From contig OZ374566.1 of assembly GCA_977862235.1 (NCBI GenBank), positions 62,001 through 126,000 on the forward strand: a stretch of 64,000 bases of DNA, written 5' to 3'. This document shows positions 3,886-59,307 of this stretch, one piece after another. This DNA comes from Dudresnaya verticillata (lineage: Eukaryota). The stretch's first letter is position 1. Each line of letters opens with the position of its first letter. A program made the position numbers and the translations under genes. The notes beneath the pieces are model-generated. The model saw only the letters and a list, made by a program, of their open reading frames with translations, was not told the origin of the DNA and made no database searches.

Positions 3886-4041
3886 CCCACGCCCTCCCTA
3901 CCCCGCCCACCCCCACCCTCCCAGCGCTCATCCGCACCACGGTCCGCGTCCGCGGTAATCGGTTCTCTTCTTTTTGTTGCCCCTTTGTCCGAAGGGGAAC
4001 ATATATGTGGTATAGTGAAAACCCACGAACTCCGAGACGGA

Positions 4042-4716
4042 TGTGGTGAAGTGAAAGGCACACCTGTAAGGAGAGCTGACCAGGCAATCCCAATAAGGAG
4101 TGATCTCACACGGCACCGGGGTGGTAGAGCTTAGTTCGTAAATCGAAGGGAGTACCTCGAGCGGCAACACCTGTAAGGAGTAAAGGGACGCAACAGACAA
4201 GGGGGACGGTACAGTGCCAGGACAGCTACACCGAGACGGAGGTAGGAGTAATCCGTGCACGGGGCTGGCGAGGGGAAACCGTAAAGGAGTATGAGGGTAA
4301 GGCTTAGGGTAAGTCACTTTGCCCAGGGTTGCGTACCCGTTTACTGTATGACTCGCGGTGGCCACCCATTAATATACTGGGAGATACGCCCCGCGGTCCG
4401 GTCCGTGTGGGCCAGAATCCAATGGGTCTGGTCCACCAGGTGGGTCCGGCCCTACTGGTCCCGGTCACCGTTACGGACATGCTCGGCATTCTCATTGGCC
4501 GGCTGACACTACGTACTGTACAGAATGATTATAATTACCTAATTACAAATAAATCAACTGCTTGACTCCTATTGGTGGTACGTGCAGACTCCAGCAGGGC
4601 ATACAGTGTTACTGTGTCACTGCACTCCGCTTCGGCTTTTGGCGCCAGCTCACCGGTGCGCCGGCCGTGAGTCGGCTCAACCGTCGTCCGCACTCCGAAA
4701 CGGCCGCTTCACCACA
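4042..4716 (-). repeat. 3' LTR of element A (675 bp)
   Basis: Direct repeat of 15103-15769 with about 12 substitutions and one 8-bp indel (CCTATTGG), counted by eye. Confidence 0.97.
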
Positions 4717-15096: not shown

Positions 15097-15102
15097 AAAA
15101 GA

Positions 15103-15769
15103 TGTGGTGAAGTGAAAGGCACACCTGTAAGGAGAGCAGATCAGGCAATCCCAATAAGGAGTGATCTCACACGGCACCGGGGTGGTAGAGCTTAGTTCGT
15201 AAACCGAAGGGAGTACCTCGAGCGGCAACACCTGTAAGGAGTAAAGGGACGCAACAGACAAGGGGGACGGTACAGTGCCAGGACAGCTACACCGAGACGG
15301 AGGTAAGAGGAATCCGTGCACGGGGCTGGCGAGGGGAAACCGTAAAGGAGTATGAGGGTAAGGCTTAGGGTAAGTCACTTTGCCCAGGGTTGCGTACCCG
15401 TTTACTGTAGGACTCGCGGTGGCCACCCATTAATATACTGGGAGATACGCCCCGCGGTCCGGTCCGTGTGGGCCAGACCCCAATGGGTCTGGTCCACCAG
15501 GTGGGTCCGGCCCTACTGGTCCCGGTCACCGTTACGGACATGCTCGGCATTCTCATTGGCCGGCTGACACTACGTACTGTACAGAATGATTATAATTACC
15601 TAATTACAAATAAATCAACTGCTTGACTTGGTACGCGCAGACTCCAGCAGGGCATACAGTGTTACTGTGTCACTGCACTCCGCTTCGGCTTTTGGCGTCA
15701 GCTCACCGGTGCGCCGGCCGTGAGTCGGCTCAACTGCCGTCCGCACTCCGAAACGGCCGCTTCACCACA
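15103..15769 (-). repeat. 5' LTR of element A (667 bp)
   Basis: Copy of 4042-4716, adjacent to the PBS and followed by the TSD ACGGA. Confidence 0.97.
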
Positions 15770-16546
15770 ACGGACAGCTGGCCTGACTTTCCTTAACGGA
15801 CGAGAGCAACACTACCTCCACGGGGTGGTAGAGCAGTTCGCACCGAGACGGGAGAACAGCGAGCGGCTAACCGAGACGGATATTGGGAAGCAACAGACAA
15901 GGGGGTGGTACAAGTGCCGGGACGGACTCCGTAACGGTGGTGGTGGTAGACCGCAACGGGTTCGGCGCGGGGAAAACCGTAAAGGATTGGGCTAAGGTTG
16001 CTTACCCGTTTACCTTAGGAGCCGCTGCGGTGCCGCCCTGATATACAAGTCAGGGTGGCACCGAGCGGTCCGGTCCGTGGGGCCCAGACCCTAGTGCTCT
16101 GGTCCTATGGTGGAATCGGCCCTGCTGGTCCCAATCTCCGACACGGACATGCGCAGCATTCTCATGGGCTGGCGCACTACTCTACATACTTTACAGATAC
16201 TCACTAAAAATAAAGCATAAACACTACAAATACTCCGCTTCGGTTGGTGCGCTCCAGTACTGTACAACAATGCGTACCAGCGTACAGCAATGCGCACAAC
16301 ATCCGACACGGTTACACGTTGCCAGATCATCAGCGTGGCGTATTGCCACATCACCCGTTACGGTTGGCTCGCCGTCGGCGTGCCGCGTGCGCGCCACGGC
16401 TCACTTCACCACAGACCTCCCTCCTTAAATGGCGCCACGTCCTCTGGCGCCCACCGTCACGGATTACCTTTGCTTCCACACCCACACACAACCGATACGG
16501 TTATCTTCCTCAACTCTTCCTCCTCTTTCGTGCGCCCGCTTCCAAG

Positions 16547-30903: not shown

Positions 30904-31622
30904 ACGGGGTGTGCCCCGAATGCTTGACGGCGAGTTCGGGGTCGACTGTAAAACCCCCCGAACCTCTAGGAGTGCCGTAATGCACGTACAGTAGCGAAGT
31001 CGATTACGCCGGTGAGTGCCGTTGAAGACAGGCGTTGGAACGGGGTACGTAGGCCCGGTTCGCGCGCGGTTCTGTTACCGAAGGCGAAGATGGGGGTATC
31101 GTCGAGTTACTAAGCCTGCTTGGCGCTTTACTGTGGGAGGGGTTCCCCGTATACTACGTATCCCCCGCGTGAGATGCGCGCGGGCTTCTGGCGCCGTTCG
31201 CCTGACACTTGGCGTACGCGCGCGCCACGAGCTCACTAAAATATCGCGCAAAAATATCTAATGTAGAAATACTACTATCACACTGTAAATCGGTGTAAAC
31301 TAAGGGTGCGCATTGCTGGTGCGCACCCGAGCGAGGGTTCCCTCGGATATATTCGGCGCGCGTGTTGCGCGTGTACACGTGGAGACGTGTCGTCCGTTTG
31401 TGCTGTTGGCGTGTGCTTTACGGGCGCGCGCGCACCGTGCCAAAGGCGCGTTGCCCATTGGCTGGATCTCGTACGCGCGGCATCTGCGCACAGGCCCATC
31501 CAAGCCGCCGGTTCTGGGCGTATGCTCTAGCCGCGGGTGATCTGCGTGTACCGTCGTCCGCTCACCGCGCGAGCGGGTGTAGCGGTATAAAACGGGGCTT
31601 ACCGCCGGGGTCTTGCACCACA
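30904..31622 (-). repeat. 3' LTR of C, missing about 120 bp at the B insertion point
   Basis: Aligns to 58592-59307 at roughly 90-93% by eye. Ends TGCACCACA next to the PPT. Confidence 0.9.
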
Positions 31623-32422
31623 TCGCCCCCTCCTAAGAGCGAAACCCGCTGGGCCAACCCCCTTCCTTCGGCGGCAATCGTAACTGTACGGAGTCTCCTC
31701 CGGTTGTGCCTGCGTAGCAACACCCCGCAACATCAACATCCGTCTCTGACGGGACGGCTCATCCGTTGAACTGCCCGCGGCTCTCCGCGTTCCTGCTGTG
31801 AGTGTTATCATCCCGCGGCCGTGTGTGGCGACTCACTACGAAGGCGATTTCGGAAAAATCCTTTTTCCCATGCGGATATTCATGATTTTTTATGCCTCAC
31901 GTTTGGCCCGGGCGAGTAATGAATATCAGCATTTCAAATAAAGGTTCAGCGCATTGATTTCCCATGGCGCACGAATCCAGCGGAATGATTCGTGAATCAC
32001 ATTTTCGCTCTTTTGATGGCGCTTGAGGCCCCTGCAGTATCAATAGTCATACGGTATTCCGTTTCGGTAATGCATCAGTTCCGACCTGTGTGATGTGGCA
32101 AATCGCAAATCTATTTACGCACTGCTATGATTCTGAAACCGCAAAAGTAATGCGTCACAGCATTACCGCGGTAATGCCGCGGTTCCATTTCCGAGTCTAC
32201 TATCGCTGTGCATGCGGCCGCATGGATTTTCTCGCTTTAATTCATGGAAACTGCTGCGTCACATGCGCCGCCCCAGGCAGGCAGGCCTGCCGCATGTTGG
32301 TAGTCCTACGTCTACACTACATAATAGCTCCGTTCTTAACTTCCTCGCTCAGAAGCGCCGTGAACTCTTTGCAAAGTACGTCTCCTTCACGCTGAAAGCA
32401 GGGTACAGATACCTCGAGAACC

Positions 32423-34044
32423 TCAGTGCCTTGCGAGCCTTTTGCAAGGTCGGCCGACCATACGCGAGGACGAACAGCCTGTGCTCGACGCCACGCTACG
32501 TAAAACCCTCGGGGATTTTTGTCGCACACTTGAACCTTGCCGTTTAGTCGGATCTTCGACTCTGGAAGCGACTCGCTTCGAAACGCGAAGAGGATGCACA
32601 AACCTGCAATCTGTGGAACACCATTGCCTACTGTCCCGCATCAGGACTGTGGAAGCATCTTTCGTGCTGTCTGTAGGTCGTGTCATGCTGCGACCGCAGC
32701 TTTTCCGTACGAAAAGGGCACACGGATATGCTGTGTTGTCCTTCGTGTACTCATACGTGCCTAGAATTCGAATTAACCTTCCTTTTTTAGAAGAAACTTC
32801 CTTCGTTAACATTTCGAGCCCGTCGGCGAGTGCAGTTATACCAAGACATCTGCATAGAGTTCCAAAAGATTTGAAACAGATGAACATAACATCAGTCGAC
32901 AATGACGGCCACTGTGTGCTCTCGAAAGATGGGAAGAAGGAGATTGTATTATCCTCTTCCCCAGTCATCTCCATGGGCGACGCGGCCGCGTCGTCTCTCG
33001 TTGCCGCCCATGTCCTAGCGATAATAGCAAACTGCGCCACATCGAAATCTGCAGACACCTTCAAACAGAATTGCGCTGTGTCATTCAGCAGAACTCTGTC
33101 GTCCATGTGATGATCATCACCAGCTTCTCTGTTGAGCCGCGCCGGTATTCTCCTGGCCCGTGTCTTCAGCGTGATTAGCAGACTCTGGGGAGTTCCACGC
33201 AATCTCGGTACTGCTCCGGCCGGGGTACATGCACTCGTATCGGCTGACACTCGTGGCTGTATTGGTGTCTGCGGTGTTTGGTCTTCCAACACATTCGAAG
33301 ATGCACTTCTTCTTATCGTTCTACTACTTGCAGCCTTCTTTCCCTTCCGGCGAGCTGGGGCCTTCTGCATGCAACTGGCCAGGCGATGGCGAAGGAACCC
33401 GAAAACTCTTTCACAGCTTTGATCCAGGCCTCGGTTCAAGCTTAGCTCTATCCGTGCAGTGTTTCTTTGCACTCGACTCTTGATCGTCTCTATCTCTGAG
33501 CCCATAGCAGAATATCGTTGTCGTAGAAAGCTGAACTCACGATTCAAATCAGAACTGTCCACAACTTCCACATCTTGCTCTCACTATTGCGGTATTCGAG
33601 ATCTTGGCTTCCCTGGCGGCGCTGCTGTTGACTCGAAACATTTTCGATAGGCGGGCCAGCCCGCGTTCTCCAACTCAGTAGAGGATTGTCATTGTCCGAG
33701 CGATCTTGTTCCCAGACACGAAGATGTCTACCTGCAATAAATTCAACCTTCTCAACAGTTGCCATATAGTCGTACTGAGTATTGGAAACATACTCTATAG
33801 TCGCGACAGCGATTAAGTCACCGTCGTCAATTTCAACAACGTCCAATACCTCAGCATCCCACCGCACTTCGTCACCATTGTTCATCTCCCATGCCACCTG
33901 TACCCATTCATTGGCAAGCGGCAGAGTGTTGCGCTCCCTGCACCTCCTCATGTTGCAGAGTGTAATGTGCGGATGTTTGCTGATGCATGCAAAAGCATAC
34001 GTCTCCGTACGCGATGAGCAGGCCTGCTCAGGAAACTGTGACAT
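32423..34044 (-). pseudogene. CACTA accessory gene 1, unknown function; N-terminal part resembles a Tudor/Agenet-like beta-barrel
   Basis: Overlapping ORFs 33544..34044 (166 aa; EWVQVAWEMNNGDEVRWDAEVLDV) and 32423..33571 (382 aa, coiled-coil-like start), linked by a frameshift or intron. Confidence 0.55.
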
Positions 34045-34329
34045 AACAATTCACAAATGCGAAGTGCGGGTCAATATCGGCAATTGTGCAACCATGGAAC
34101 AGGTCTGCAGGCCTGTAGGCCTGCAGTGCTCCATTTCGCAACTTATCACGATTCTAGTTCATGAGAGCTTGTAGATCTACGCAGTATTTTGGCTGAATCA
34201 CTTCGAGTACTGGCAAAGATACGCAGAAAGGGCTTATCGGGAATTTGCAACGGCCGTTCCTCCGCGCGCGAGTGCCATACTTTTATCCGTCTCTCCGCGT
34301 AGAGACCTCTACCCGTCAACGCGTCAAGA

Positions 34330-36956
34330 ATGACTCCAACAACTAGGCAAGGCTCAAACAGGAAAACTAGAAAATCAGTAGCAGGCAAGGAAGTATCCGG
34401 ATATGTTGCTGTAACAGCATTAACAAGCAGGCCGAGGCAGTCCCCGGCTTTCAGACGTTTTGTGGGCCCGCCCCCTGGGTGGCCGGAAGAGAGAGGTCGA
34501 CCTCGTGATGTCGACAGATATAACCCCGGCCGGGCTTCGGAAATTGAGGACACGCCGCAATCTCATCCTGACGGTCCTGGGTCGGACGGGTTGACACCGC
34601 AAGATGACAGAGCTGCAAGCAGAAACCGTTCTTGTGCAAAAGAGCCTAAAAGGAGACCGACAACAAGGCGTCTAGGAGAACTCTTACAAAGTCCTGAAGA
34701 TTTAGCCTTGGGCCAGACCCGGCCGGGTGATGCCAGATATGAAGAGTCAGCTTCCACAGAAGAGCGCGCAACGGATAGTTCCGTTCTGAAATCCAGGCGG
34801 CGTGGTTCAGTAAGACGAGAACTGGAAGAAACACCTGACAGCCGGCAGGCATCCATTCCACCAGGGCTTAAGCGTAGGCGTTTAGGTGTAAAGGCTCCTC
34901 GAAGTGTGGCTCACAAGCGTATCGTGCAGGCGCCAAAGACTAGTTCGGCCGAACCGGTCGACGTTTCAGATGAGGGAGGAACTCCTGCTCTCGAAAGGCA
35001 GGTAGAGAAACCCAGACCCAATTTATATGGTGATGAGGGGGACAACACACCGTTGAACATAAGGAGAGGGCCATCTGAAAACCAAGTTCAGCCTTTTTCC
35101 CGAAGCCGGCTTCAGGAGCTATTCAGCCTGGCCAGGCAGTCTTGGGAGCTGTTGCAAAGATATCGAGCCACCGGTCAATTCCGGAAACGGCATTGAAGAG
35201 TATGGAAAATTATCTGAACGGTACCATGAAGACATATGTTCAGTCTATGCAGGATACAATATTGCAGCGCATTGGAGATGTTGAAAGAAAACTATCAGAA
35301 GTTAAGTCTGATATTGAGGAAATGCGTTTTGTTGAACAGTTTAGGTCGTCCGGGCCCGGACAAGGCTCTCATAAGAAGACTGCAAGGGCAGCATTCGAGG
35401 AAAAGCTTGAGAGGCTCACGCCTCATGCAAGGCTCCTGTTCAACCAGACTGTTATGTGCAGAGTACCAAGCAGCTGCATTTCCAACTATACATCTACTGC
35501 TATCTCCAGACAAGATGATAACGGCAAATTGTCGGCCGACATTTTGTGAGCTTTTCTCTTCACAAAGCAAGTGGACCAAGGAAAGAGGACATTCAAAGAA
35601 GCATTGGGAAGACGTTTCAGTGCGTTCCGGTACCTAGTCGTAACAAACGCTGTATTCAATGTGCAACAGAATCTGTTCCTTCAGTTCAGGACTTTGACGA
35701 CGGCAGCGATAGGAAAATGCACAGATGAAGTGAAAGGCTCGAAGCCGGGCGAAGCGGCCGCTTCGCAAACTTCCGGGATGCCAAAGTGTGTAGACGCATC
35801 TGCAGATGGATCCATTGATACCGGAATGGATTACCCCGAATTGTTGAAGCCAAAAGTAATTGTCGAGGAACACATCAAAAACGCGCGGATGCTTTGTGAC
35901 ACAGGGATGGGTAAGGGTCACGATGCTGAACGAGGGCCGGCCGGCAACTAGGAGGATATTTCAGAACGCCCCAAGTCTTTGGCTGTGAAAGACATTCCCA
36001 ATGTTGAGGACATCGCCCTACATGGAGCTTCGAAGGTCTATAAGATAGTCACAGATTGGCTCCTAGAAAGCAGGAAAAAAGCCAAGAACGCGCTATCAGA
36101 GGACCTGACATACATAATGGTCAACTGGAAACAGCTGAACTGTGGGGATATTGATCAGACCACAGTGCGAGTGCGCTGGGCTTCAACAGGGTCTGCAGAT
36201 AATACTGCATCTACCGCGGCCGCGGGGGGGAACACATTCGATGTCGACGATGTGATTGATACTAGTGACATTCCAGACACGACGAGAAAACCCGGCCGGG
36301 CAATAGATATAGATGTCTCTAATACCAACCTGTTTAACGAACTGCTGAAGGAACGCATCGACATGATGTTTAGTGTTTCCCATGATGTGTTTGTACTGCC
36401 GTCAACGTCCGGCGGCCGCCGTAGCGCAGATAGGAAGTCAAGGAAACGCCAAGGTGGGGAGAAGAAGCCACTCAAAAGAATTGTGAACCTCATCGAGGTT
36501 GCCATGAAGTTTTGCGTGGCTTTCACACAGAACTGTTCAAAAGAGTACTCGCCCGAGGTTTTTCTGGGTGCCCACATCAAGTCATTGGAAACAATTGTTG
36601 CCTTGGCTCATGTTCTTCGTATGTTGGTGAAGAAGTTTGTGGCTGTTCATTTTGACGCCAGAGGGAGATATCGCGGCCGCGACATATCAACTTCTGGAAT
36701 TAAGGTTGGCTCTTTGTCACTGGAAACGTTGCTGACGGGGAACTCCAACATGAAGCGGGTACTCACGAGCAGGGCACTTCGGATGACTGAGAAAGAGTAC
36801 GAAGTTCTGAACATGACCGATGACAACTCTGAGGCTAAACGGACCCCATGGGTGTTGCTGCAGCCACTGGTGGGCGCGGCCGCGACCCCTCCATTGGGCA
36901 TGGAGGGGAACTCGTGGCTTGCGATACGACTGGAATCATGGAGGTCTAGCCGTTAA
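34330..36956 (+). pseudogene. CACTA accessory gene 2, unknown function; basic disordered N-terminus, coiled coil and helical C-terminal part
   Basis: Consecutive ORFs 34330..35196, 35142..35549, 35571..35951 and 35979..36956 tile about 870 codons with frameshifts and one in-frame stop. Confidence 0.6.
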
Positions 36957-37389
36957 CGGCATTTATGTAAATGCACAGTCTTAAGCTGCATCTCATATGT
37001 GTTTTTGTGTGCACACACAACCATGTTTCAGACGGTTAACCATATCGTTAACCATATGAGTATGAATAATGGAACTTGAGCTTCTCGCCCCGTCGCGGCC
37101 GCGTGGGGTGAGCAACTCGCAAGGGAGAGAGCATTTTCCAACCCAGTCTTATGAGAAGATATGCATCAACAATCAAGACAATAATGTCAAGTGAGAACTG
37201 AACTAGAGCTCATTTACTCAACGACATAGAATGTAAACATCTACTGTTGTGCACGTTCCAGCACCGGACGGAAATACTAGTAGTTCAAGCAACTGCTCTA
37301 CGCATACTCCAAATGCATGTTAACAATCTTGCATGAAAAGGGCGACCGCCCTTTTCGAGAACGGTCTCAAAGAACCAGATCCGGCCGGA

Positions 37390-40300
37390 CTAGGCACCAA
37401 CCACTGCGATAAGGACCATTACTGCCACCTTGCGGGGCGGCATCGCGATGCTGCCCAGGCACGAAACGGTGTGTCGGCATGCCACGACAGACTGGACTGC
37501 GTACGCTTTGAACACCGTTAGCAGGGCCGACGCCACAATTCGCTCCGTGTGGAGCTCCATATGTTCGCCCGGGCGGGCCCGCGTTACTTTGGAACGGTGG
37601 AGGTGACTTCGGTGAGCCATTAGAGTAGCGAACATGGTCAGTTGCAACTGCGGCATGCCGGTCTGCAGACCATCTATCGCGAAGCCAGTTGTGCTGATAC
37701 ACTCCGTCGCGACCGTCGTGCGCTGAATACCGTGGGCCCCACGACTCGGCGCAGCCGGGCGGGGCGCATAGTCCGGGCCATAGACATGGCAATATCCATC
37801 AACATATCCATTGTAACCGTGTGGGGCTCCGCGGCGTCTATCTTGGGACCCATGGCCCTGTTGCCCATATTCCCGACTATAGTCGCGCAGATGTGCCTCT
37901 AGAGGAGCTCCACGCTCTCGGTACTCACCCTCACGATAACCCCGAGTGTTATAGCGCTCATGGTATGCATTGGAACTGTATTGGTTGCGGTTGCGATAGC
38001 CATGATCATCGTAATAACTGTGATATTGCTGATAATCGTCACGATCTTGATGGCGCCCTGAACCTTGATATCCATCGCGATGCGCGCTGCATGCAGGATG
38101 TCTGTCTCGATTACCCGTGCCCGGCCGGGCCCGGCTGGTCCCGAGCCCTGGGGGTGCAGAAGAGCGATGACAATCGTCGTACCGGTAAGGCGCTGCGGGC
38201 AGTGCCTCTTGTCCTGCCTGCCCAACAAAGCGAGCAAGATCGTCTCTCTCGGGGCGAACGGCAGCCAATTGCTCAAGCACGCAATTTACGTTGCGCGTGG
38301 TATGAGTGAGAGTCTCAAATATGCGGCGGGCCAGCTGCTTCACCGTCACGAAACCGGCATCCAGCCAACCGTGGAGGTGGGCGTATGTCTCCAGACCTTG
38401 AACCATCCTCAGGTCGGGGCCAGTGAGACGGAGGGGAAGCGGTGAGGATTCACGCACTTCCTGGCGGCGAACGTGACGCACAGAGAGTCTCACGTGTCGA
38501 CACTTGGGGTCCAGAACGAACTTCTTTCCTGGGCGCCCATCGCAGATGACGTTTCCTGTTCCAATCCTAGCCTCCACGAAGAAACTGTTTCTTATCCCTT
38601 GAAAAGGCATGACAATTTCGTGGCGCTGCTTCACCTCAAGTCCAAGCGCCGCAAACATCCGAGCAACGATCACCTGACAGTCAATGCGGCCGCATTTTCC
38701 AGTTTCGTCGGCTGCGGTGACAATCTCAAGCTTTTCGAGCGTATCCCTGATTAGGATGATGGCATCGCGACCAAGGATAAATGGGCGACCTCCGTGGATG
38801 GCTTCGTTGTGCCATATTGCTGTGATGAGCGCTAGCACCTCCACCTTGAAAACATCCCAAAGTCGTTGGCGACGTTTCTCATCACGTCCACTCACCATCT
38901 CCTGATGGTAGTACCAAACACAAAGCGGTAGCGGGACGGGAAGAGCAGGAGGTAGCTTGAGGTTGGCCAGCCATTCAGGCACAGCCGGGAACATTTCCTG
39001 CATCTCTTCCAAAGTATACTTCTTGGTCTCAAATGAGACGTATGGGACCAGCAGTTTGCACGCCTCCCGACACCATGCCTCATACACGAAGTCAAGTATA
39101 TGCTTGAATGCATTCCACCACCGACCCAGGATACGGTCAGCGAACAACGGAAGGTCAGTGACAGGGCGTGCCCGCTCTTCTGACAAGTACTTTGACATGT
39201 TGCTGTAATAGTAGCACTCCACATCCGCCCTCGCAAATGTGCGATCGCCTTGCATCGCAGATGGCAACTCATACCACGGTCGCTCGATTCCCATGAGTGA
39301 CCACACATCGTTGGCAGATTTCTGGTCCTTGTAAAGCAGCTTAAGGAACCTTAGCATGTCTGCTTTCATATTAGGGAGGTCTCTTCGCACGTACTGGGTG
39401 AACGACAAACTCCTCTGCACCCTTGTCTTCCATTCCTGTTGCGTGTTGAGGAGATTTATATCAAGTGTTTTCTTATTAAGCTTGTTCCGGATCTGATGCG
39501 CGGTCGCGCTTCGTCGAGGCGGTCGTTGCACACGCGGAAGATTCGCCCATGAAGACTCTAAAGTTGGGACAAGCGCCATCTGCATAGCAGCATGCTGCTC
39601 AGAATGCTGCGCCACTGCAGCGGTGTCGCCTTCAGTATCCATTGCATCTTCTTGCCCGGCCGGGACTGCTCCAGAACTGCTAGCTTGAACTTCGCCCTCT
39701 GTGCGCTTCAGAGCACTCATCGATTCAGCATACGTTAAGTATGGCTGCGACGTTACCTCCATCCGGAACGGCGTAGGAGGGCGGTCGTCAAGGCTTCGTT
39801 CGCGCTCCAACTCAACAGCATCAGGGACGGACATTTTGGTTGTTGCACGCTCTTGAGAAGCAACAACGGGACCTGCAATCTTGGCAACATCATGACCATC
39901 GTTCGCGGTAGCAGGCGCACATCGGATCTCTTCGAGAGGATCAGAGCCGGCAGGGCCCTGTCCGCGCGTAGAAGCTCCTGTGCCACGGCTCGGCGAGGCG
40001 CTATCCTTCTGCTTCTTTAGAATGGAATGTCTTTCTGACTCCAGCAGCATCTCCATCTTCCTCTTTCGAGGCCTGAATCCAGGCAACAAATCCGATGGAA
40101 CATTGGCTCGTGGATTCCCAGCCGGGTTTCCTCCTGCGGTTGTAGCATCCGCCGTCGTATTGGACACAAATACAACCTCTTCCTCTTTTGCTTCTCGCAT
40201 CCCAGGGTCCTTGGGAGGGGCTGAAGGGGCCCGGTTGATTCATTTATCGAGGCGGCGCCGGCCGGCGAGACCAGGAGAGCTGGCGGGGTTTCTGAAGCTT

Positions 40301-40457
40301 CAGCGGGTGCCACGCTCTTGACTTTATCCTTCCGCTTAAGCCGATTGTCGTTATGCGAAGTACCCTTGCCTCCCGGTCCCGTGGCCGCGGCATCTCGAGA
40401 TCTAGTAGTTGCATAGCGGCTTCGAGAACTGCTGCGAGTCTTGACGCGACTTTCCAC
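37390..40457 (-). CDS. CACTA accessory gene 3; shares a domain with the Gypsy antisense ORFs
   Basis: 936-aa ORF 37390..40200, probably extended 5' by 40017..40457. The core LLVPY...VPEWL...VPLPLCVWY...RLWDVFKVEVLALITAIWHNE...GRPFIL is followed by an R/G/Y/D-rich low-complexity tail. Confidence 0.75.
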
Positions 40458-41711
40458 CTGCTTCTTCTTACCGAGACCAGGGCGTTTCCTCTTGCAACGC
40501 GCTCCCGCACTGTCCTCATCAACTTGGCCAACGAGCTTCTTCTTAACAAGTATCGGCTTGGGCGTGGTGATGCTTCATTTCTGAGCTGGCGCGGCCGCGC
40601 CTACAGGCCTGCATGCAGGTCGCCCGGTCTGCGCTGCCGAGCCTTTCGCAAGCTCTGCACGTGCTCCAGCGACAGCTCCAGTAACATGTTGAACTGCAGT
40701 TGCCTTAGCCACTGATGCCTTCTTCTGCGGTGAAGCCGCGATGCTCTTGTTCTGCGGTGATGAAGGGCTTATCTTATTCTGCGGTGCGGGGACTTGTCGG
40801 CCTTTCCAAGACCATCATTGGAGGCGGCGGCCGCCGCGCGATTCTGCATGACACGTTCGCCGACCATGACGGAGCTGGGCTGCGTTTCCCGCAATGCCCG
40901 TGTGTGGAGGGGAGGAGAGAGAAACCAGCGGTGATGCACAGCGCGACTCCGCGGAGTCTTTAGCCATGCGGTTGAGTGCTCTCACACTAGTGTGTAGTGC
41001 GGGCGGGGGTGGGGAGGTTGCTACCTCATGATGCCATGACAGCCGCGGCTGGCCCACGGGCATATAGCTTCTTCGTCGGCACGCTGATTTGTTTACCGAC
41101 GGAGCGCAGTTCGGCCGAACAAGAATTCCATGGCCTCCCATTGGTCAAGGATAAATCTAAGTCGCGTGATTTTGTTGTTAAATCCACAGCTTTGCCTGGG
41201 CAGGCACGTACGTTCAGCCGCAGCTCTGTGTGTGTGGCACGCAGATGCCGGCCTCAAAGGGTTTTTTTGGACAAATCATCTTTGCAAGGCCATCAAACGC
41301 GTGTGCGTGCACGTAACCGTCCCATCACAGTGGCTGTACGCGTATACCGATTCATGGCTGCTGTAAACTGCAGCAATGACGTGTGTATTGCACTGCAGTC
41401 GGGCCCTACTGCAGCTCGAAATACGAAAAAGGCGGGCACGCCCGAGTCGCGGCTCTGCAGTGCGTCCCTCATTACGATGTGAATGAAGCTTGTGGTGTAG
41501 CAACGCGGTCGAATTGCAAAGTCCTCAAAGTGCGGAAACCGACAAACAGCTTTGCAGCGGCGACGCCCGAACGCCCATTGTGCACAGATTTCTATAGCAA
41601 TTGGAGCTCCGAATCCGGTCACGTCCGTCAACGGGAATGGGCGGAAGGAACCGAAAGAAGTTTCAAGGGCGACGCAAAACTAGACTTCGCTCATGGGTGG
41701 AGAGCGTTGGA

Positions 41712-44700
41712 ATGCGAAGCGACTTGAAAGAGCTGTTTCGCCATGAAAGTTCCAACGACGCAGTTGTAGATGATTTCACAAGAGATCGCATCGATGTAAG
41801 CCCTGTCAATACAGGTATCGCGGCCGCGACTGCGACACATGGAGATGGCCCTGGGACAGCTGTCAAATCGGGCAACACGGGGCATTGTCGAACACTAGCA
41901 CTTCCTCCGGGCCACAGAGCGGGTCAAGAGCAAGATCCGCCCCATTTCTCCGACAACGAAAGTGAGTACGACAGAGTGGGGCCCCTCGGCAACGTTGATG
42001 GAGCTATAACTGGTGGCAATCATGTGGATGAGCTTTCCTTACAAGGGTCAGACAGTGACGACTCGGAGAATGACGTGCCTCCCGAAGTATTTGAGACGTT
42101 TAAAGATACCATGGACCTAGGAACCGGAGATTCAGTGAGACGCTGGCAGACTGATCTGTTTCGAGAACATGGAGCACCGGAAGAACTCACGGCCGGCCGG
42201 CCGAGCGCAGACACACATTCAATTTCTCGGAACACCCTGTCGAGGAAGGATGCGAAGAAGTTGCTGCACCGCCGCAAAGATTTTCTGAATAGGGAAAACC
42301 TCTTCGCTCTTGTCAGCGTCTGCAGAAGCGTTTGAATTACGGTTAGACAGTATGCAACGGTTCAACGATTGGGACATTGGCTTCTTCGCGAGGCCTCACT
42401 TCCAGCTTATTCCAACGTTCAGCGCACACTTTTCCCGTTCGCAATCAAGCATTGCTTCCCTCTAAGCCGCAATGTCTCCCTTCCCGTGACTTCGGCTGAT
42501 TTCAAGAAGAAAGCAAGAGGTATTGTGTTCACAACGTATTCCGAGCAATGCCCCGGCGATGGGATTCGCAGGAGGAGGACATTGGCAAATGAGCGGAGTG
42601 GAGCGGCTTTCGCGCGCGCATCATCCGCTATGCAAGAAGCTTCCACTCCGGAGCTGAATGTAGACCATAATGAAAGTCATTGTGGCTTTGGGAACCGTCA
42701 CATGACAGCTCGTAAGTTTGTTCCAGTGAAGATCGTGTGCCCATCGGAATGGGCAAAGATGGATATTGCCACCTTCCCAGTCTTTGAAGAAATGTTTCCA
42801 TCTTTCGACACAACCGACCCCGGCCGGGATCCTGCTCCATATGACTGCATTGAGATCACTAGAGTTGTTCGCAGGCGCGAAGATTTCATCTCCGCAGCGA
42901 ATTGTTTGTTCGTGAAGAATGGGAAGAAGGTGTTCAGGGCCGTCCCGGGTGTGTCAATTGAGGTCATCTGCGGAAACGTTCCGCGATGTGTCGCCAAACA
43001 CCCACCAAATTCTATCGCCTGCGACCTTACTTTCAGAGAACACGGAAAACAGCTCGCTTCAGGTACTATATCGGCGATATGGTGCGTGGGTAGTAAGGGC
43101 AAAGAGGGACCAAGTGCCACCAAAGCATTTGCGGCCGCAAATGGAGTTGAGAATTATATCATCAAGCTCCTCAGCACCGCCGACAAACCTTCATGCGCCC
43201 TGCCCGGTTGTCGCGAGCATCGCAGAGAGGATGCGCCTCTAGTGTCAAGTACGTCGCTGTGCACGGCCATGATACCGGGGGATTTGTGCACCCTGTTTCG
43301 TGTTGATTCAAGCTGGCCATCCAACTTCATTGCTTGTGTTCTCGTGAATAGATTGTGGCGATACAGGGATGGTGAACCATCAGAGTTGCTGGTTTGGATA
43401 CATCTCGACAACAGCTGGAATTCTGGCGTCGAGCACTGCGGACCAGACCTGGCGTACCAGGTGCTCAAGGAAACAACTCCAGTTACGGTTGTGTGTCTCG
43501 GTCAATGTGCATACCACAGAGAAAAAGAGCTGCGTAGAAGAATTCAGGAAGGCGATTCTCCACTGGACTTCAGTTCTCGGCCGAGAAACTTCGGGGTACT
43601 CCCTTCAGGGGAAAGGTACGTTGTATACCGCGTTTTGTTATATTGCGACGACTTTCATCCATGCACGGCTCTTCTTCCCCAGGGCTCTGCGGGGGTGTTT
43701 ACATGCTGCCCTTGGGACTTTCTCCACGCAAGCGCACGAAGCGATCGGCTGTCTGGCTCATCTCGTTAACTTCTCCTGGGGTCAGCAGCAACGAAGTGTT
43801 ACGATACATTATTCCTGATCTTGTGATGAGCGCGAAAGACGGGATTGTTGGCTGCACTCCGAATGGTGATCCCATGAGAATATTTGTTGACCACGTGGGG
43901 TTCATCGCTCACTATCCGGCGGCCGCCAAGACTACTGATGTCATCGGACACGTAGGTATGGCATCCTGCACACATTGCAATTTCCGGAGAGTCCTCAACG
44001 ACGTATGGAGCAAGTTTGGCTACACAGTGCAACTGGACGCCCAGCACTCTTCAAGTCTATGATTTCAGGAACGACATGATGCTATTCGCGTGAGTGGACT
44101 TTGTCGTGCCCAGGCTTCTCGTCTCGGTTTCTCTAGGGAAGAAGATGAAAATGGAATTCAGCCGCTTGTATTTATCGGTCAAGAACTGCAACAAGCTCGG
44201 CCCTTCATCGTGAGAAATCGGAGCGGAGACTTGGTTGCGCCCTGCATGTTTGACCCGTACCGCTCACAGTTGATAGCCCCAGATCATTTTCTTACTGGTC
44301 TCGCTAAAATACTCTGAGCGCTTGTTTCGGAGCCCTGACGAGGGAAGGGCAAGGCCTTGCCGATGTCTTGATGTGCCAAGCCCTTCGATACAACGGCCTC
44401 TTAACTCAGAACTCAGTGTTCGAAAGAACATTACACAGCATGCAACTCTCCGAACTCTACTGCGTTCTTGTCGTCTCAGTTCCCGTGTTCCGCCTAACGC
44501 TCGGCGCTACGCATGAAGCGTATCGTTTGGTTACTTTGTTGCAAAACGTGGTGGCGTTGACGTTCTGGTGGCCAAAAGCAGCGATTGATGTAATTGAAGC
44601 TGTGGAAAACATGCGTGAAGACGGCGGCCGCCGTTACTTAGAAGACTTGCAGCAACGCTCAAAACAGTATGTAGCTTTGTGCAATAGCTACATAGAACAT

Positions 44701-45798
44701 TGTGATTCTGGTAACGACTTGGACAAGGCAAACCTCCATAGGACTCTCGAGCTGTACTGCCACACAATACCGCTATTCGGGCATGCAATACACTTCATGG
44801 AACTCGTGTTCGAATGCGCAGACTCCCCGCTGAAGAGATGCGCTGCTCGAAGCAATCACCATAACGCCCACATTTCAGCTGTTGAACATGTGCTCGGAAA
44901 CGACTGGCAAGGCAGGCTTGCCCTCCTGCGTCATGGGATGAGGACCGCTGGCCAGCGCTCTGGTATGTTGTGTCTCAGGAGTCTCCGGTCACTGCTTCTC
45001 GGGCCCGAGATCAGTCACCTTCCGGATAGTGACGTAGAAGTACGGGATTTGATCAAGTGGATGTATGAGAAGATCTAAGAGGTCTTCGTAGAGCCAGTTG
45101 TGGAGGAACTTCGAGCCGACGGGACAGTCAGTGCCTCTTAGTCGTGCACGGACGCCGAATGGATCTCCGCAAAGCAAGTGAAAGCAAGAAATATGGCCGA
45201 GAGAGTAAGTTATTCTGGTGATACTTGGGAAGAAATCTTTGAGGATGCAATTGCCGCAGTGGTGCAAGCGTTTCGAGATTTCGGAGAGAGTGCGGCCGCA
45301 CCTATCCTGTTCAAAGGTGCGAGACGTGTCCGGAAGACGAGCGTTGCAGGCCCGCAGCGCTCGTACAAACATGACTCGATTTAGAAAGGATCCGTCGTTC
45401 AGTTCATACTGCTACCCAGTGGGGAGTGGAACAAGGTGATGGTACCAACAGACGGGCATAGATGTATCCAATACTCTGCAGTATTGGCTTGCTTCGAATG
45501 GGGTGGTGATAGTGCTCGGGCTATCGTAGCTGGATGCAATTGGGACGAGAGAAAACTGCAAGTTCGCAAGCCCTTGCCACGCAGCGAACTTCAAGTTCTC
45601 AAGATGACGAATGGAGTGCGAAGAATTGGGTTGCACCACAAGTTTGCATTTCGGGAAGGCAACGGAGTGTCGAGTCCAGAGTTGTTCTGCGAGGTATATT
45701 TGGAGCAGCGGAGAGTTCGTCACTCAGAATCGCTTGTAGAAGGCGGTACCTTAACGTACCAGGTAAGAGCACATGGATATCCACCACGAATGGCATAG
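41712..45798 (+). pseudogene. CACTA/EnSpm-type DDE transposase, fragmented
   Basis: Motifs occur in the order expected for CMC transposases: VLLYCDDF (about 43640), SAGGVYMLP, FIAHYPA (D.PA position), GH....CTHC (about 43950), APDHFLTGL (about 44280) and FECADSPLKR (about 44810). It is split across more than six ORFs by stops and frameshifts. Confidence 0.8.
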
Positions 45799-45834
45799 AT
45801 GAAGCACGGTCGTGCTACCCGCATGTCATAATGG

Positions 45835-45889
45835 ACGACCTCGACCGCGCGACCGCGTGACCGCGCGACCGCGCGACCGCGCGACCACA
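45835..45889 (+). repeat. Tandem 8-mer (CGACCGCG) about 6 copies, downstream of the transposase
   Basis: CGACCT CGACCGCG CGACCGCG TGACCGCG CGACCGCG CGACCGCG CGACCACA. Confidence 0.85.
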
Positions 45890-46630
45890 CCCCCGCTCCC
45901 CCGTGTGATCAGCGCGCTGCCTGCGATCAGGCGCGGCCCGTGCGACCAGCACGGGTGTGACCGCGCAGGCCGTTATGCGTGAAATGGGTGTCAACAACGG
46001 GCAGAGGGTATACGAACCGGCTGGCGAACGCAGCGCGCTGCGCATGGCCGCGGCCGCAGTGCGGCGCTAGATGTGATAGGTAGAAAGCATGAAGTAAAGC
46101 ATTAAGAATCATGAATCACCACTGCATTTCCATAGATTGATCCGGTATCCGCATGGAACGGCCGTTTCGGAGCCAAAAGACAATACATAAATTCGTTGCG
46201 AGATGGGAGCGCACGTTGGAATGAATTACAATGCGGTGGCCATGCGTCACAATTGTCAAGGTAATGCGCTAACTAATAACAATGTGCGATTTGATTCAGA
46301 ACAACAACGCATGCGCAGCACGAGTTTTAATGGCGGGTTAGCATAATGACTAATGGGTGGCAGCATTCAGAATCAATTTCTGGGACACATTTTTTGGGCT
46401 CGATCCATTACAATGTCGTGCGGCATTTCCTTCGCGCGTCCGTTTATTTTGATTTGATTATTTTGTAATTGCTCTCGTAGTGCTCCTGTGACGCCTCGTG
46501 GTACCCCGCGTTACAAATTGGACGCCTCGTGGGTGCGCATCGTGTGTGGGCTTGGCCTCGTTAGTTGTCGTCGCGGCTCTGTGCGTATTCCACCCGCACT
46601 CTTTTTTCGGTCATCCGCTGCACGGCCGCC

Positions 46631-58469: not shown

Positions 58470-59307
58470 TGTGGTGCAACACCGAAAAACGGGGATTGCC
58501 CCAACCGTGTTCCACGCGGTCTCCCGCGGGTAGGTAGCAGACGCACCACGCAGTGAGGCGGGCGCCGGAGTGGTGGTAGAGCAAACAGGACACGGGGTGT
58601 GCCCCGAATGGTTGACGGCGAGTTCGGGGTCGACTGTAAAACCCTCGAACCGCCAGGGGTGCCGTAATGCACGTAAAGTAACGAAGGCGATTACGCCGGT
58701 GAGTGCCGTTGAAGACAGGCGTTGGAACGGGGTGCGTAGGCCCGGTTCGCGCGCGGTGCTGTTACCGAAGGCGAAGGTGGGGTATCGTCGAGTTCCTAAG
58801 CCTGCTTGGCTCTTTACTGTGGGAGGGGTTCCCCGTATACTAAGTATCCCCCACGGGAGGTGCGCGCGTGTGTCTGGCGCCGTGCGCCTGACACTTGGCA
58901 TACGCGCGCACCACGAACTCACTAAAATAACGCGCAAAATATCTAGCGTAGAAATACTACTATCGCACTGTAAATCAGTGTAAACTAAGGGTGCGCATTG
59001 CTGATGCGCACCCGAGCGAGGATTCCCTCGGATATATTCGGCGCGCCTGTTGCGCGTGTACACGTGGAGACCTGTCGTCCGTGTGTGCTGTAGGCGTGTG
59101 CTGTACGGGCGCACGCGCACCGCGCCAAGGGCTCGTTGTCCATTGGCCGGATCTCGTACACACGGCATCCACGCACAGGCCCATCCAAGCCGCCGGTTAT
59201 CGGCGTATGCTCTATCCGCGGGTGATCCGCGTGTACCGTCGTCCGCTCACCGCGCGAGCGGGTGTGGCGATATAAAACGGGGCTTACTCCCGGGGTCTTG
59301 CACCACA
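58470..59307 (-). repeat. 5' LTR of element C (838 bp)
   Basis: TGTGGTGCAA...TTGCACCACA inverted termini; repeat of 30904-31622. Confidence 0.93.

Follow-up and report, generated by a model that had tools for sequence, protein, structure and literature searches.

What process could furnish a transposon with dozens of short perfect palindromes that share a central tetranucleotide but differ in their arms? The question is raised by a 64,000-nucleotide stretch of Dudresnaya verticillata DNA (contig OZ374566.1, positions 62,001 to 126,000; hereafter the window, whose own numbering is used throughout), in which a decayed CACTA/EnSpm-type DNA transposon carries an array of palindromes centred on GGCC. 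A first-pass annotation, made from the sequence alone, had pointed to these palindromes and offered two explanations, a selected structural tag or the product of a repair process. We find that the pattern is real and strongly non-random, and that the palindromes are evenly spaced, a new result beyond the first observation. The transposon itself belongs to a known clade; its novelty is its palindrome pattern. The two features in question are the following:

31834..46482, no strand assigned: CACTA/EnSpm-type (CMCT clade) DNA transposon, 14,649 bp, a decayed copy with CACTACGA at both ends, transposase homologs and 7 stops in 3,742 modelled codons
32211..46166, no strand assigned: array of 43 perfect GGCC-centred palindromes of 10-18 bp, starting at 32211, 32280, 32448, 32978, 34015, 34249, 34525, 34717, 34943, 35126, 35348, 35530, 35749, 35936, 36214, 36291, 36410, 36671, 36875, 37094, 37380, 37573, 38119, 38124, 38683, 39655, 39951, 40256, 40588, 40824, 41109, 41818, 42190, 42819, 43126, 43574, 43918, 44348, 44621, 44946, 44997, 45290 and 46157

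Extent and symmetry of the palindrome array

Each zero-spacer palindrome of the window was recorded with its maximal perfect arms and sorted by its central tetramer. The enumeration returned the same 43 GGCC-centred palindromes that had been counted by eye, with the quoted examples in place; the GGCC sites of the element, estimated at 85-90 with half of them palindromic, proved to number 97, while the palindromic count stood. Perfect palindromes of at least 10 bp are centred on 43 of the 97 GGCC sites inside 31834-46482, but on only 4 of 221 outside (Fisher p = 1.5e-21), and those of at least 12 bp on 30/97 and 0/221, respectively (p = 9e-18). Thirteen of the palindromes are 10 bp long, 16 are 12 bp and 10 are 14 bp, with two each of 16 and 18 bp. 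Their reported near-absence outside holds, although there are four outside palindromes rather than two, all of 10 bp (1460, 4357, 15418 and 60922, the second and third being copies of one repeat). This outside background consists of flanks whose identified genes are retrotransposon genes; host genes are not sampled in it. The best-fitting enriched block, 32217-46161, lies within the element termini, as expected if the enrichment is bounded by the element.

Markov null models of order 1, 3 and 5 gave means of 0.9, 1.9 and 6.1 palindromes, respectively (maximum 13 in 200), and synonymous recoding of the eight modelled coding segments gave a mean of 1.3 (maximum 6 of 500) where 33 are observed. 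Right arms were also swapped among the 97 GGCC sites, which keeps positional base preferences (maximum 12 of 20,000 swaps). Because this exchange yields only 3.3 palindromes on average against the 43 seen, the arms must covary. All of these nulls thus fall far below the observed count, as the first-pass annotation, which had named shuffles as a control, supposed. Its view that symmetry rather than sequence is conserved is likewise borne out by the arm swap, with the qualification that an arm preference exists: CGGCCG forms the centre of 33 of the 43. The array comprises 36 distinct sequences, with 19 different 10-mer cores, and GCGGCCGC, put at about 17 occurrences, has 17 copies inside the element and one outside. 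Other central tetramers are palindromic far less often than GGCC, the best of them at 1-9% of sites and GCGC at 1/85.

The pattern is not general to the transposase clade. Palindromic GGCC sites number 13/1,038 in 22 metagenome loci with related transposases (a partly redundant set), five lower-GC loci among the 22 having 0/37, and 16/1,064 in 38 unrelated loci. These counts bear on the idea that the pattern marks a DNA compartment, being genome-wide in the genes of the host, a former host or a virus, with the neighbouring retrotransposons as the exception. That the identified background in the window is Gypsy-type retrotransposon sequence, and that GC content and dinucleotide composition set the element apart from its flanks, would suit this idea, but the related and the unrelated loci alike are without the pattern and the literature search turned up no such genome-wide pattern, which leaves it rather improbable. 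The same search, in which coverage of subscription journals was thin, found no description of GGCC-centred palindromes with variable arms, and in its accessible sections a review of algal methylation (PMC9861306) gives nothing on GGCC or on sequence context in red seaweeds. As a separate observation, several of the marine loci of ~60% GC (L002-L022, e.g., L003 7992-12039, L006 and L007) have transposase matches out of order, the piece from later in the protein lying ~3.6-5 kb upstream of the piece from earlier in it.

Spacing, anatomy and decay of the sites

After one overlapping pair was merged, 42 positions and 41 gaps were available for analysis of spacing. The coefficient of variation (CV) of the gaps is 0.66, where uniform points would give 0.97 (p = 0.003) and subsets drawn at random from the GGCC sites 0.88 (p = 0.019). 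Only 4 of the 41 gaps are shorter than 165 bp, whereas 12.2 are expected (p = 0.0003, corrected over 25 thresholds), and the deficit persists when four regional rates are kept (p = 0.004). Gaps of 150-350 bp account for 26 of the 41, and the median gap is 279 bp. The controls are not evenly spaced, with CVs of 1.01 for plain GGCC, 1.05-1.18 for five control tetramers and 1.7 for 37 other palindromes. The spacing is an exclusion zone of ~165 bp, not a strict period, and this scale matches the size of a nucleosome. The most regular part of the array is:

34525..37582, no strand assigned: stretch of 16 sites with gaps of 193, 226, 183, 223, 181, 222, 183, 279, 76, 120, 261, 203, 219, 286 and 193 bp

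Outward from the GGCC core, pairing runs at 0.66, 0.65 and 0.63 for pairs 3-5 and then at 0.51, 0.36 and 0.31, near background. The profile is a footprint of 10-12 bp, flat over 10 bp and faded by 14 bp, not a geometric tail. Symmetry ends at 6 or 8 bp in 21 sites, and since only 5 of these lack any pairing beyond that point up to pair 6, most appear to be long sites that have been broken. Each of the four symmetric hexamers is enriched, the asymmetric ones are depleted, and no clear base-composition signal surrounds the palindromes. Palindromes with other centres show a smaller excess (39/804 vs 71/2,665, excluding any that lie 8 bp or less from a GGCC site), which is confined to a central GC step (18/247 vs 15/681, p = 0.0005; remainder p = 0.26). 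Perfect palindromes of 14-18 bp with other centres occur in the element at 32160-32177, 33107-33120, 39586-39599, 40945-40958 and 46029-46042; such sites cluster and are not spaced.

Much of this anatomy would be expected of a functionless mutational drive, in which fold-back repair, set off where a GGCC in the DNA of this family is nicked or carries a modified base, copies 3-5 bases from one arm to the other, perfect palindromes being the stable end state. The enrichment of all four symmetric hexamers with depletion of the asymmetric ones and the weaker excess at other GC-centred tetramers favour it, as does the all-or-none pattern, an argument used for conversion in Nematomorpha mitochondria in the accessible account (PMC6649704). 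So do the DNA-modifying accessory genes described in red-algal Plavaka elements (bioRxiv 10.1101/2025.02.11.637652). Drive could also be fitted to the spacing if one site were exposed or processed per nucleosome or per Okazaki fragment. Independent conversion, however, predicts a random subset of GGCC sites, which is rejected at p = 0.0003-0.004, and with the flanking GGCC untouched (4/221) the process would have to act in cis. We regard drive without function, the main rival of the reading favoured below, as possible but unlikely.

The decay of this copy gives the array a relative age. The 7 stops in 3,742 codons correspond to decay of 1.6-2.4%, which predicts 6-9 broken 12-mers per 30 intact ones (range 2-23). 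A single arm mismatch at pairs 3-5 is present at 13 sites (~4 by chance), 9 of the 13 being transitions, and a single core mismatch at 11 of 666 sites, compared with 2.3 expected (tandem repeat left out). Because these broken sites roughly match the decay of the copy, the array predates the copy's death and its sites were apparently not restored where they stand; with the broken sites counted in, the ancestor would have had a spacing close to 250 bp. Sites with a broken core are found mostly in gaps, at a median distance of 238 bp from the perfect ones (2/13 in the tandem repeat). Since broken sites persist at about the decay rate and the flanking GGCC is untouched, repair acting at the element today is disfavoured, whereas the selected tag, the other explanation first offered, gains from the even spacing. 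Two features nearby add to this record:

45337..45364, no strand assigned: 28-bp GGCC-centred palindrome with two transition-type mismatches, likely a decayed site
45834..45890, + strand: tandem 8-bp repeat GACCGCGC, just past the transposase gene, each unit one G-to-A change from GGCCGCGC

The repeat is thus one step, a transition, from tandem GCGGCCGC palindromes. Broken cores lean toward C-to-T change at the inner C (GACC/GGTC at 5/85 vs 2/410 outside; p = 0.002, one of six variants tested). The inner C of GGCC is the base methylated by HaeIII-type enzymes, and the lean speaks for drive; the comparison of inner with outer C (5/85 vs 1/104) is not significant (p = 0.09) and speaks against it. 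The broken sites also bear on a sequencing or assembly artefact. Two transposase frameshifts fall in short homopolymers and may be read errors, but the pattern is bounded by the element termini, one palindrome encodes PAAA as the homologs do, and the mismatches are mostly transitions, as in natural decay. An artefact is therefore extremely doubtful.

Coding context, genes and insertion site

Four genes were modelled in the element:

32426..34044, - strand: accessory gene A, with one likely frameshift near 33575, an N-terminal beta-barrel and a weak Tudor-clan lead; no Pfam match
34330..36956, + strand: accessory gene B, with a likely frameshift near 35090 and two stops; 13 of its 19 GGCC sites are palindromic
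37390..40820, - strand: accessory gene C, with a 949-aa open frame at 37390-40239 and an approximate 5' end; conserved core, putative protein
41637..45798, + strand: transposase gene, mapped by tblastn, with 5 stops and 2 frameshifts; 96 homologs at E <= 0.001

Gene spans contain 35 of the 43 palindromes, and 8 lie outside them. The palindromic share of GGCC sites is 35/75 in gene spans and 8/22 elsewhere (p = 0.47); there is no coding deficit, which counts against drive. Peptides encodable by palindromes, measured against each protein's own shuffles, are in excess in the four element proteins (z of 2.2, 1.8, 3.3 and 4.3), whereas 81 related proteins of at least 300 aa have a mean z of -0.07 (standard deviation 1.15), two exceeding 3 at 10 bp and two at 12 bp. 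The palindromes probably carry some amino-acid cost, and the peptide excess suggests some accommodation. Among the 81, two transposase homolog fragments, P0013 and P0016, have z of 4.6 and 3.4 for peptides of 12-bp palindromes; judged by their peptides, they may mark other families with the pattern.

The alignment of the transposase with its homologs bears on whether the palindromes are footprints of excision or cleavage. RAG-like transposases form DNA hairpins, and hairpins opened off-centre would leave palindromic P-nucleotides at GG/CC. CACTA-type transposases are grouped with Transib and RAG1 in the accessible text of PMC12730594, and several transposase palindromes fall in loops where homologs are gapped. 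Footprints alter length, yet two palindromes in conserved transposase blocks are length-neutral, being gapped in 0/10 and 0/9 homologs (12 homologs compared); the remaining nine fall in regions that vary or align poorly and give no information on length. Nor is non-coding DNA richer in palindromes than the gene spans. Footprints are therefore highly unlikely.

The accessory genes gave few leads. The N-terminal domain of gene A (33577-33993, - strand) has Atlas language-model feature scores of 0.79-0.84 to Tudor-type families, below the lead level of 0.9, and a fold search did not confirm the lead, the single-sequence model of the N-terminus being poor (predicted local distance difference test, pLDDT, 42.5). 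Fold searches with the models of gene C and of the gene A N-terminus gave no hit at E <= 0.001, the best having Z 5.8 to generic barrels. Gene B had no match in Pfam or in a word-based protein search, and PDB and PHROG searches yielded nothing. For gene C there is one homolog (P0099, 29% identity over 300 aa) and no Pfam, PHROG, PDB or Atlas match, and its single-sequence model (pLDDT 36) is too poor for use. Neither Pfam searches of 14 open reading frames (ORFs) nor a motif scan of the coding frames revealed a nuclease or methylase in the element, a further point against drive.

Classification rests on the termini, the flanks and the transposase:

31834..31860, + strand: left terminal inverted repeat, its first 8 bases equal to the right end, with 20 matches in the first 27
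46456..46482, - strand: right terminal inverted repeat, paired with the left
31832..31833, + strand: left copy of a 2-bp target site duplication, CT, which flanks the element on both sides
46483..46484, + strand: right copy of the CT duplication

The CMCT clade and EnSpm are defined, in the accessible text of PMC12730594, by CA..TG (CAC..GTG) termini and a target site duplication of 2-5 bp. The element ends in CACTA..TAGTG within an inverted repeat, with CACTACGA at both ends, and is flanked by CT on each side, a 2-bp match that may be due to chance, the empty site being absent from the window. Its transposase is of the DDE Transposase_21/Plavaka type by way of its homologs (25-45% identity), some of which match Plavaka (E 7e-5) and Transposase_21 (E 1e-5), both below the cut-offs; the broken pieces themselves have no Pfam match. 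A CxxC motif is present. A word-based protein search with one transposase piece found no match, and viral and prokaryote scans found no relative. Membership in fungal PlavakaA or PlavakaB, which needs TGT..ACA or CATCA..TGATG termini, was rejected. No second copy of the family was found; searches with the terminal patterns gave 4 and 34 loci that were otherwise dissimilar to the element.

The left flank is 92% identical to 58920-59307, a repeat resembling a long terminal repeat (LTR). The element appears inserted within an LTR (30904-31833 and 46483-46511), ~30 bp from its ACA end; a second LTR copy (58592-59307) aligns only up to 31622, ~210 bp short of the insertion point. The identified flank genes belong to Gypsy-type retrotransposons, and further LTR-like repeats of nested chromodomain Gypsy elements lie at 4040-4716, 15101-15769 and 16065-16451, with hairpins of 26-36 bp at 15468-15497 and 16028-16063. 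TGCA and CATG are far denser inside the element (114 and 89) than in the 49 kb outside (130 and 125). Compared with the flanks, the element has more CA/TG and less CG, a composition that fits stronger CpG decay within it.

Origin of the array and comparison with known systems

Covariation of the arms requires either that one arm be copied onto the other or that a reader sense the pairing of arms. That copying was the source is suggested by the all-or-none profile together with an excess at other GC centres that is not spaced, and template switching is described as creating perfect palindromes in yeast coding DNA (PMC5677150). Independent copying gives no even spacing, element confinement or full coding density, whereas selection with a benefit saturating over ~165 bp would give all three, and copying combined with selection is therefore favoured over pure drive. 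We lean, with a little less than even confidence, toward a history in which the sites were produced by arm-copying mutations, and selection acting among active copies retained roughly one for each nucleosome as a tag read by its symmetry. Palindromes would arise in one step by fold-back or template-switch synthesis, and the same synthesis would leave the weaker, unspaced excess at other GC-centred tetramers. Each palindrome would benefit the element over about one nucleosome length, and a second site within ~165 bp would add little and would not be kept. A putative reader might recognise GGCC together with a mini-hairpin or cruciform stabilised by protein, and the likeliest benefit would be self-recognition at the chromatin level, such as anti-silencing, by analogy with VANC and TnpA. 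Since only arm-to-arm pairing can select for covariation, such a reader would sense arm pairing. The more specific proposal of a symmetry code, in which GGCC plus any self-complementary arms of 3-5 bases, distributed over the element's own genes at about one per nucleosome, would be read by a chromatin factor encoded by the element, is in our judgement doubtful.

Several results weigh against copying followed by selection for a tag. The periodogram has its highest peak near 220 bp, but a weak one, and the interval of 260-310 bp shows no trough; the agreement of the exclusion zone with nucleosome length relies on general nucleosome figures, from which the host's own repeat length may differ. 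Broken sites, ~18-19 above chance, are at the upper end of the decay prediction, and arm-broken sites are not clearly gap-filling (median 123 bp from a perfect site vs 90 for random sites). Related proteins P0013, P0016 and P0077 also exceed z of 3 in the peptide test, which is accordingly noisy. The 14 ORFs covering all four genes contain no Pfam domain, no ParB-like or methylase motif occurs in any coding frame of the element, and no element-encoded reader was identified beyond the sub-threshold Tudor lead in gene A. A functional reading would, moreover, be drawn from one decayed copy. Predicted hairpin energies range from 0 to -6.8 kcal/mol, with only 0 to -1 for the 10-mers, so that hairpins are marginal, and the hairpin or cruciform of the tag first proposed, if free, is weak at the latter. 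A stability threshold would predict longer arms where they are A/T-rich; no such lengthening is seen (rho 0.16, p = 0.30; energy spread p = 0.45), and stability compensation is not supported.

Weak hairpins combined with strong duplex energies are what would be expected if the palindromes instead let identical transcripts pair, an RNA self-recognition leading to homotypic clustering. Zero-spacer palindromes are given as the predicted determinant of such recognition (PMC13079385), and arm mismatches show no G-U wobble bias (3 G-T vs 6 A-C), as a homodimer would also lead one to expect. The fixed GGCC centre (43/97, against 1/85 for GCGC) is unexplained by RNA pairing, however; predicted RNA accessibility is lower at the palindromes than at plain GGCC (median 2e-5 vs 4e-4), 8 palindromes lie outside the modelled gene spans, and a benefit for a DNA transposon is not evident. 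We consider this explanation quite improbable.

If the array was selected, it points to a form of DNA recognition that works through symmetry and also to a means by which transposons could distinguish themselves from the host, and a symmetry code, if true, would let coding sequence bear a dense self-tag at little protein cost. If mutational drive made it, the array exposes a process of site-directed arm copying that operates within a single element.

Among known systems, the array resembles the VANC (VANDAL) and TnpA (Spm/CACTA) tags of Arabidopsis in being dense, short and private to one transposon family, and these are a possible model for its role. Their motifs are described as fixed (YAGTATTAY and CCVTCGCAAA) with a proven binder (PMC5735166; bioRxiv 10.64898/2026.08.24.746577), mainly non-coding or terminal and often tandem, whereas the palindromes are dispersed, evenly spaced and largely within gene spans (35/43), with only GGCC fixed and with arms that covary over 36 sequences and 19 10-mer cores. 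In tags of the VANC/TnpA type, an element-encoded protein binds the motifs and methylation is lowered. The analogies to VANC and to HIP1 drawn by the first-pass annotation are accordingly loose, both being fixed sequences.

In its large size, related transposase and three accessory genes, the element is like the red-algal giant Plavaka elements (EnSpm/CACTA), whose inverted repeats have been proposed as self-binding sites (bioRxiv 10.1101/2025.02.11.637652). As described in the available text of that preprint, those repeats form tandem arrays beside a ParB-like gene within a PAG1-3 cassette, an arrangement not detected in our element. The 14 ORFs gave no Pfam hit at E <= 1 to a PAG2-type DNA methylase (PF01555) or SET (PF00856), and neither an in-frame motif nor a tandem inverted-repeat array like that of PAG3 (ParB-like plus 2OG oxygenase) was seen; the PAG3 domains of the preprint needed profile-profile searches to come to light, and the models here were too poor for use.

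Like the array, HIP1 of cyanobacteria consists of iterated palindromes that occur both within genes and between them and are spaced non-randomly, and it too has prompted a debate over selection versus repair (PMC4390886, PMC5861425). As reported there, HIP1 is a single 8-mer whose sequence and extensions are fixed; it is found across the genome with a period of 10-90 kb and is tied to known methylases. The array has free arms, a scale of ~0.2-0.3 kb and a single element as its range, GCGGCCGC making up only 17 sites and all four symmetric hexamers being enriched. A HIP1-type genome-wide spread is not seen in the 49 kb of flank (4/221), where the identified genes are those of retrotransposons. 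The palindromes of Nematomorpha mitochondria are likewise perfect, unrelated inverted repeats in coding DNA with an all-or-none pattern, for which template switching was suggested; they reach 284 bp, and the accessible text describes no fixed centre or even spacing (PMC6649704), whereas those of the array measure 10-18 bp, have no spacer and keep a fixed centre. The perfect, all-or-none arms expected of template-switch products, with no length change needed, are found in the array. Pure template switching, which should give independent sites and no fixed central word, was rejected in view of the even spacing and of GGCC at 43/97 against 1-9% for other centres. In the transposon self-tags known so far the motif is fixed, and in known iterated palindromes the word is fixed; the array fits neither.

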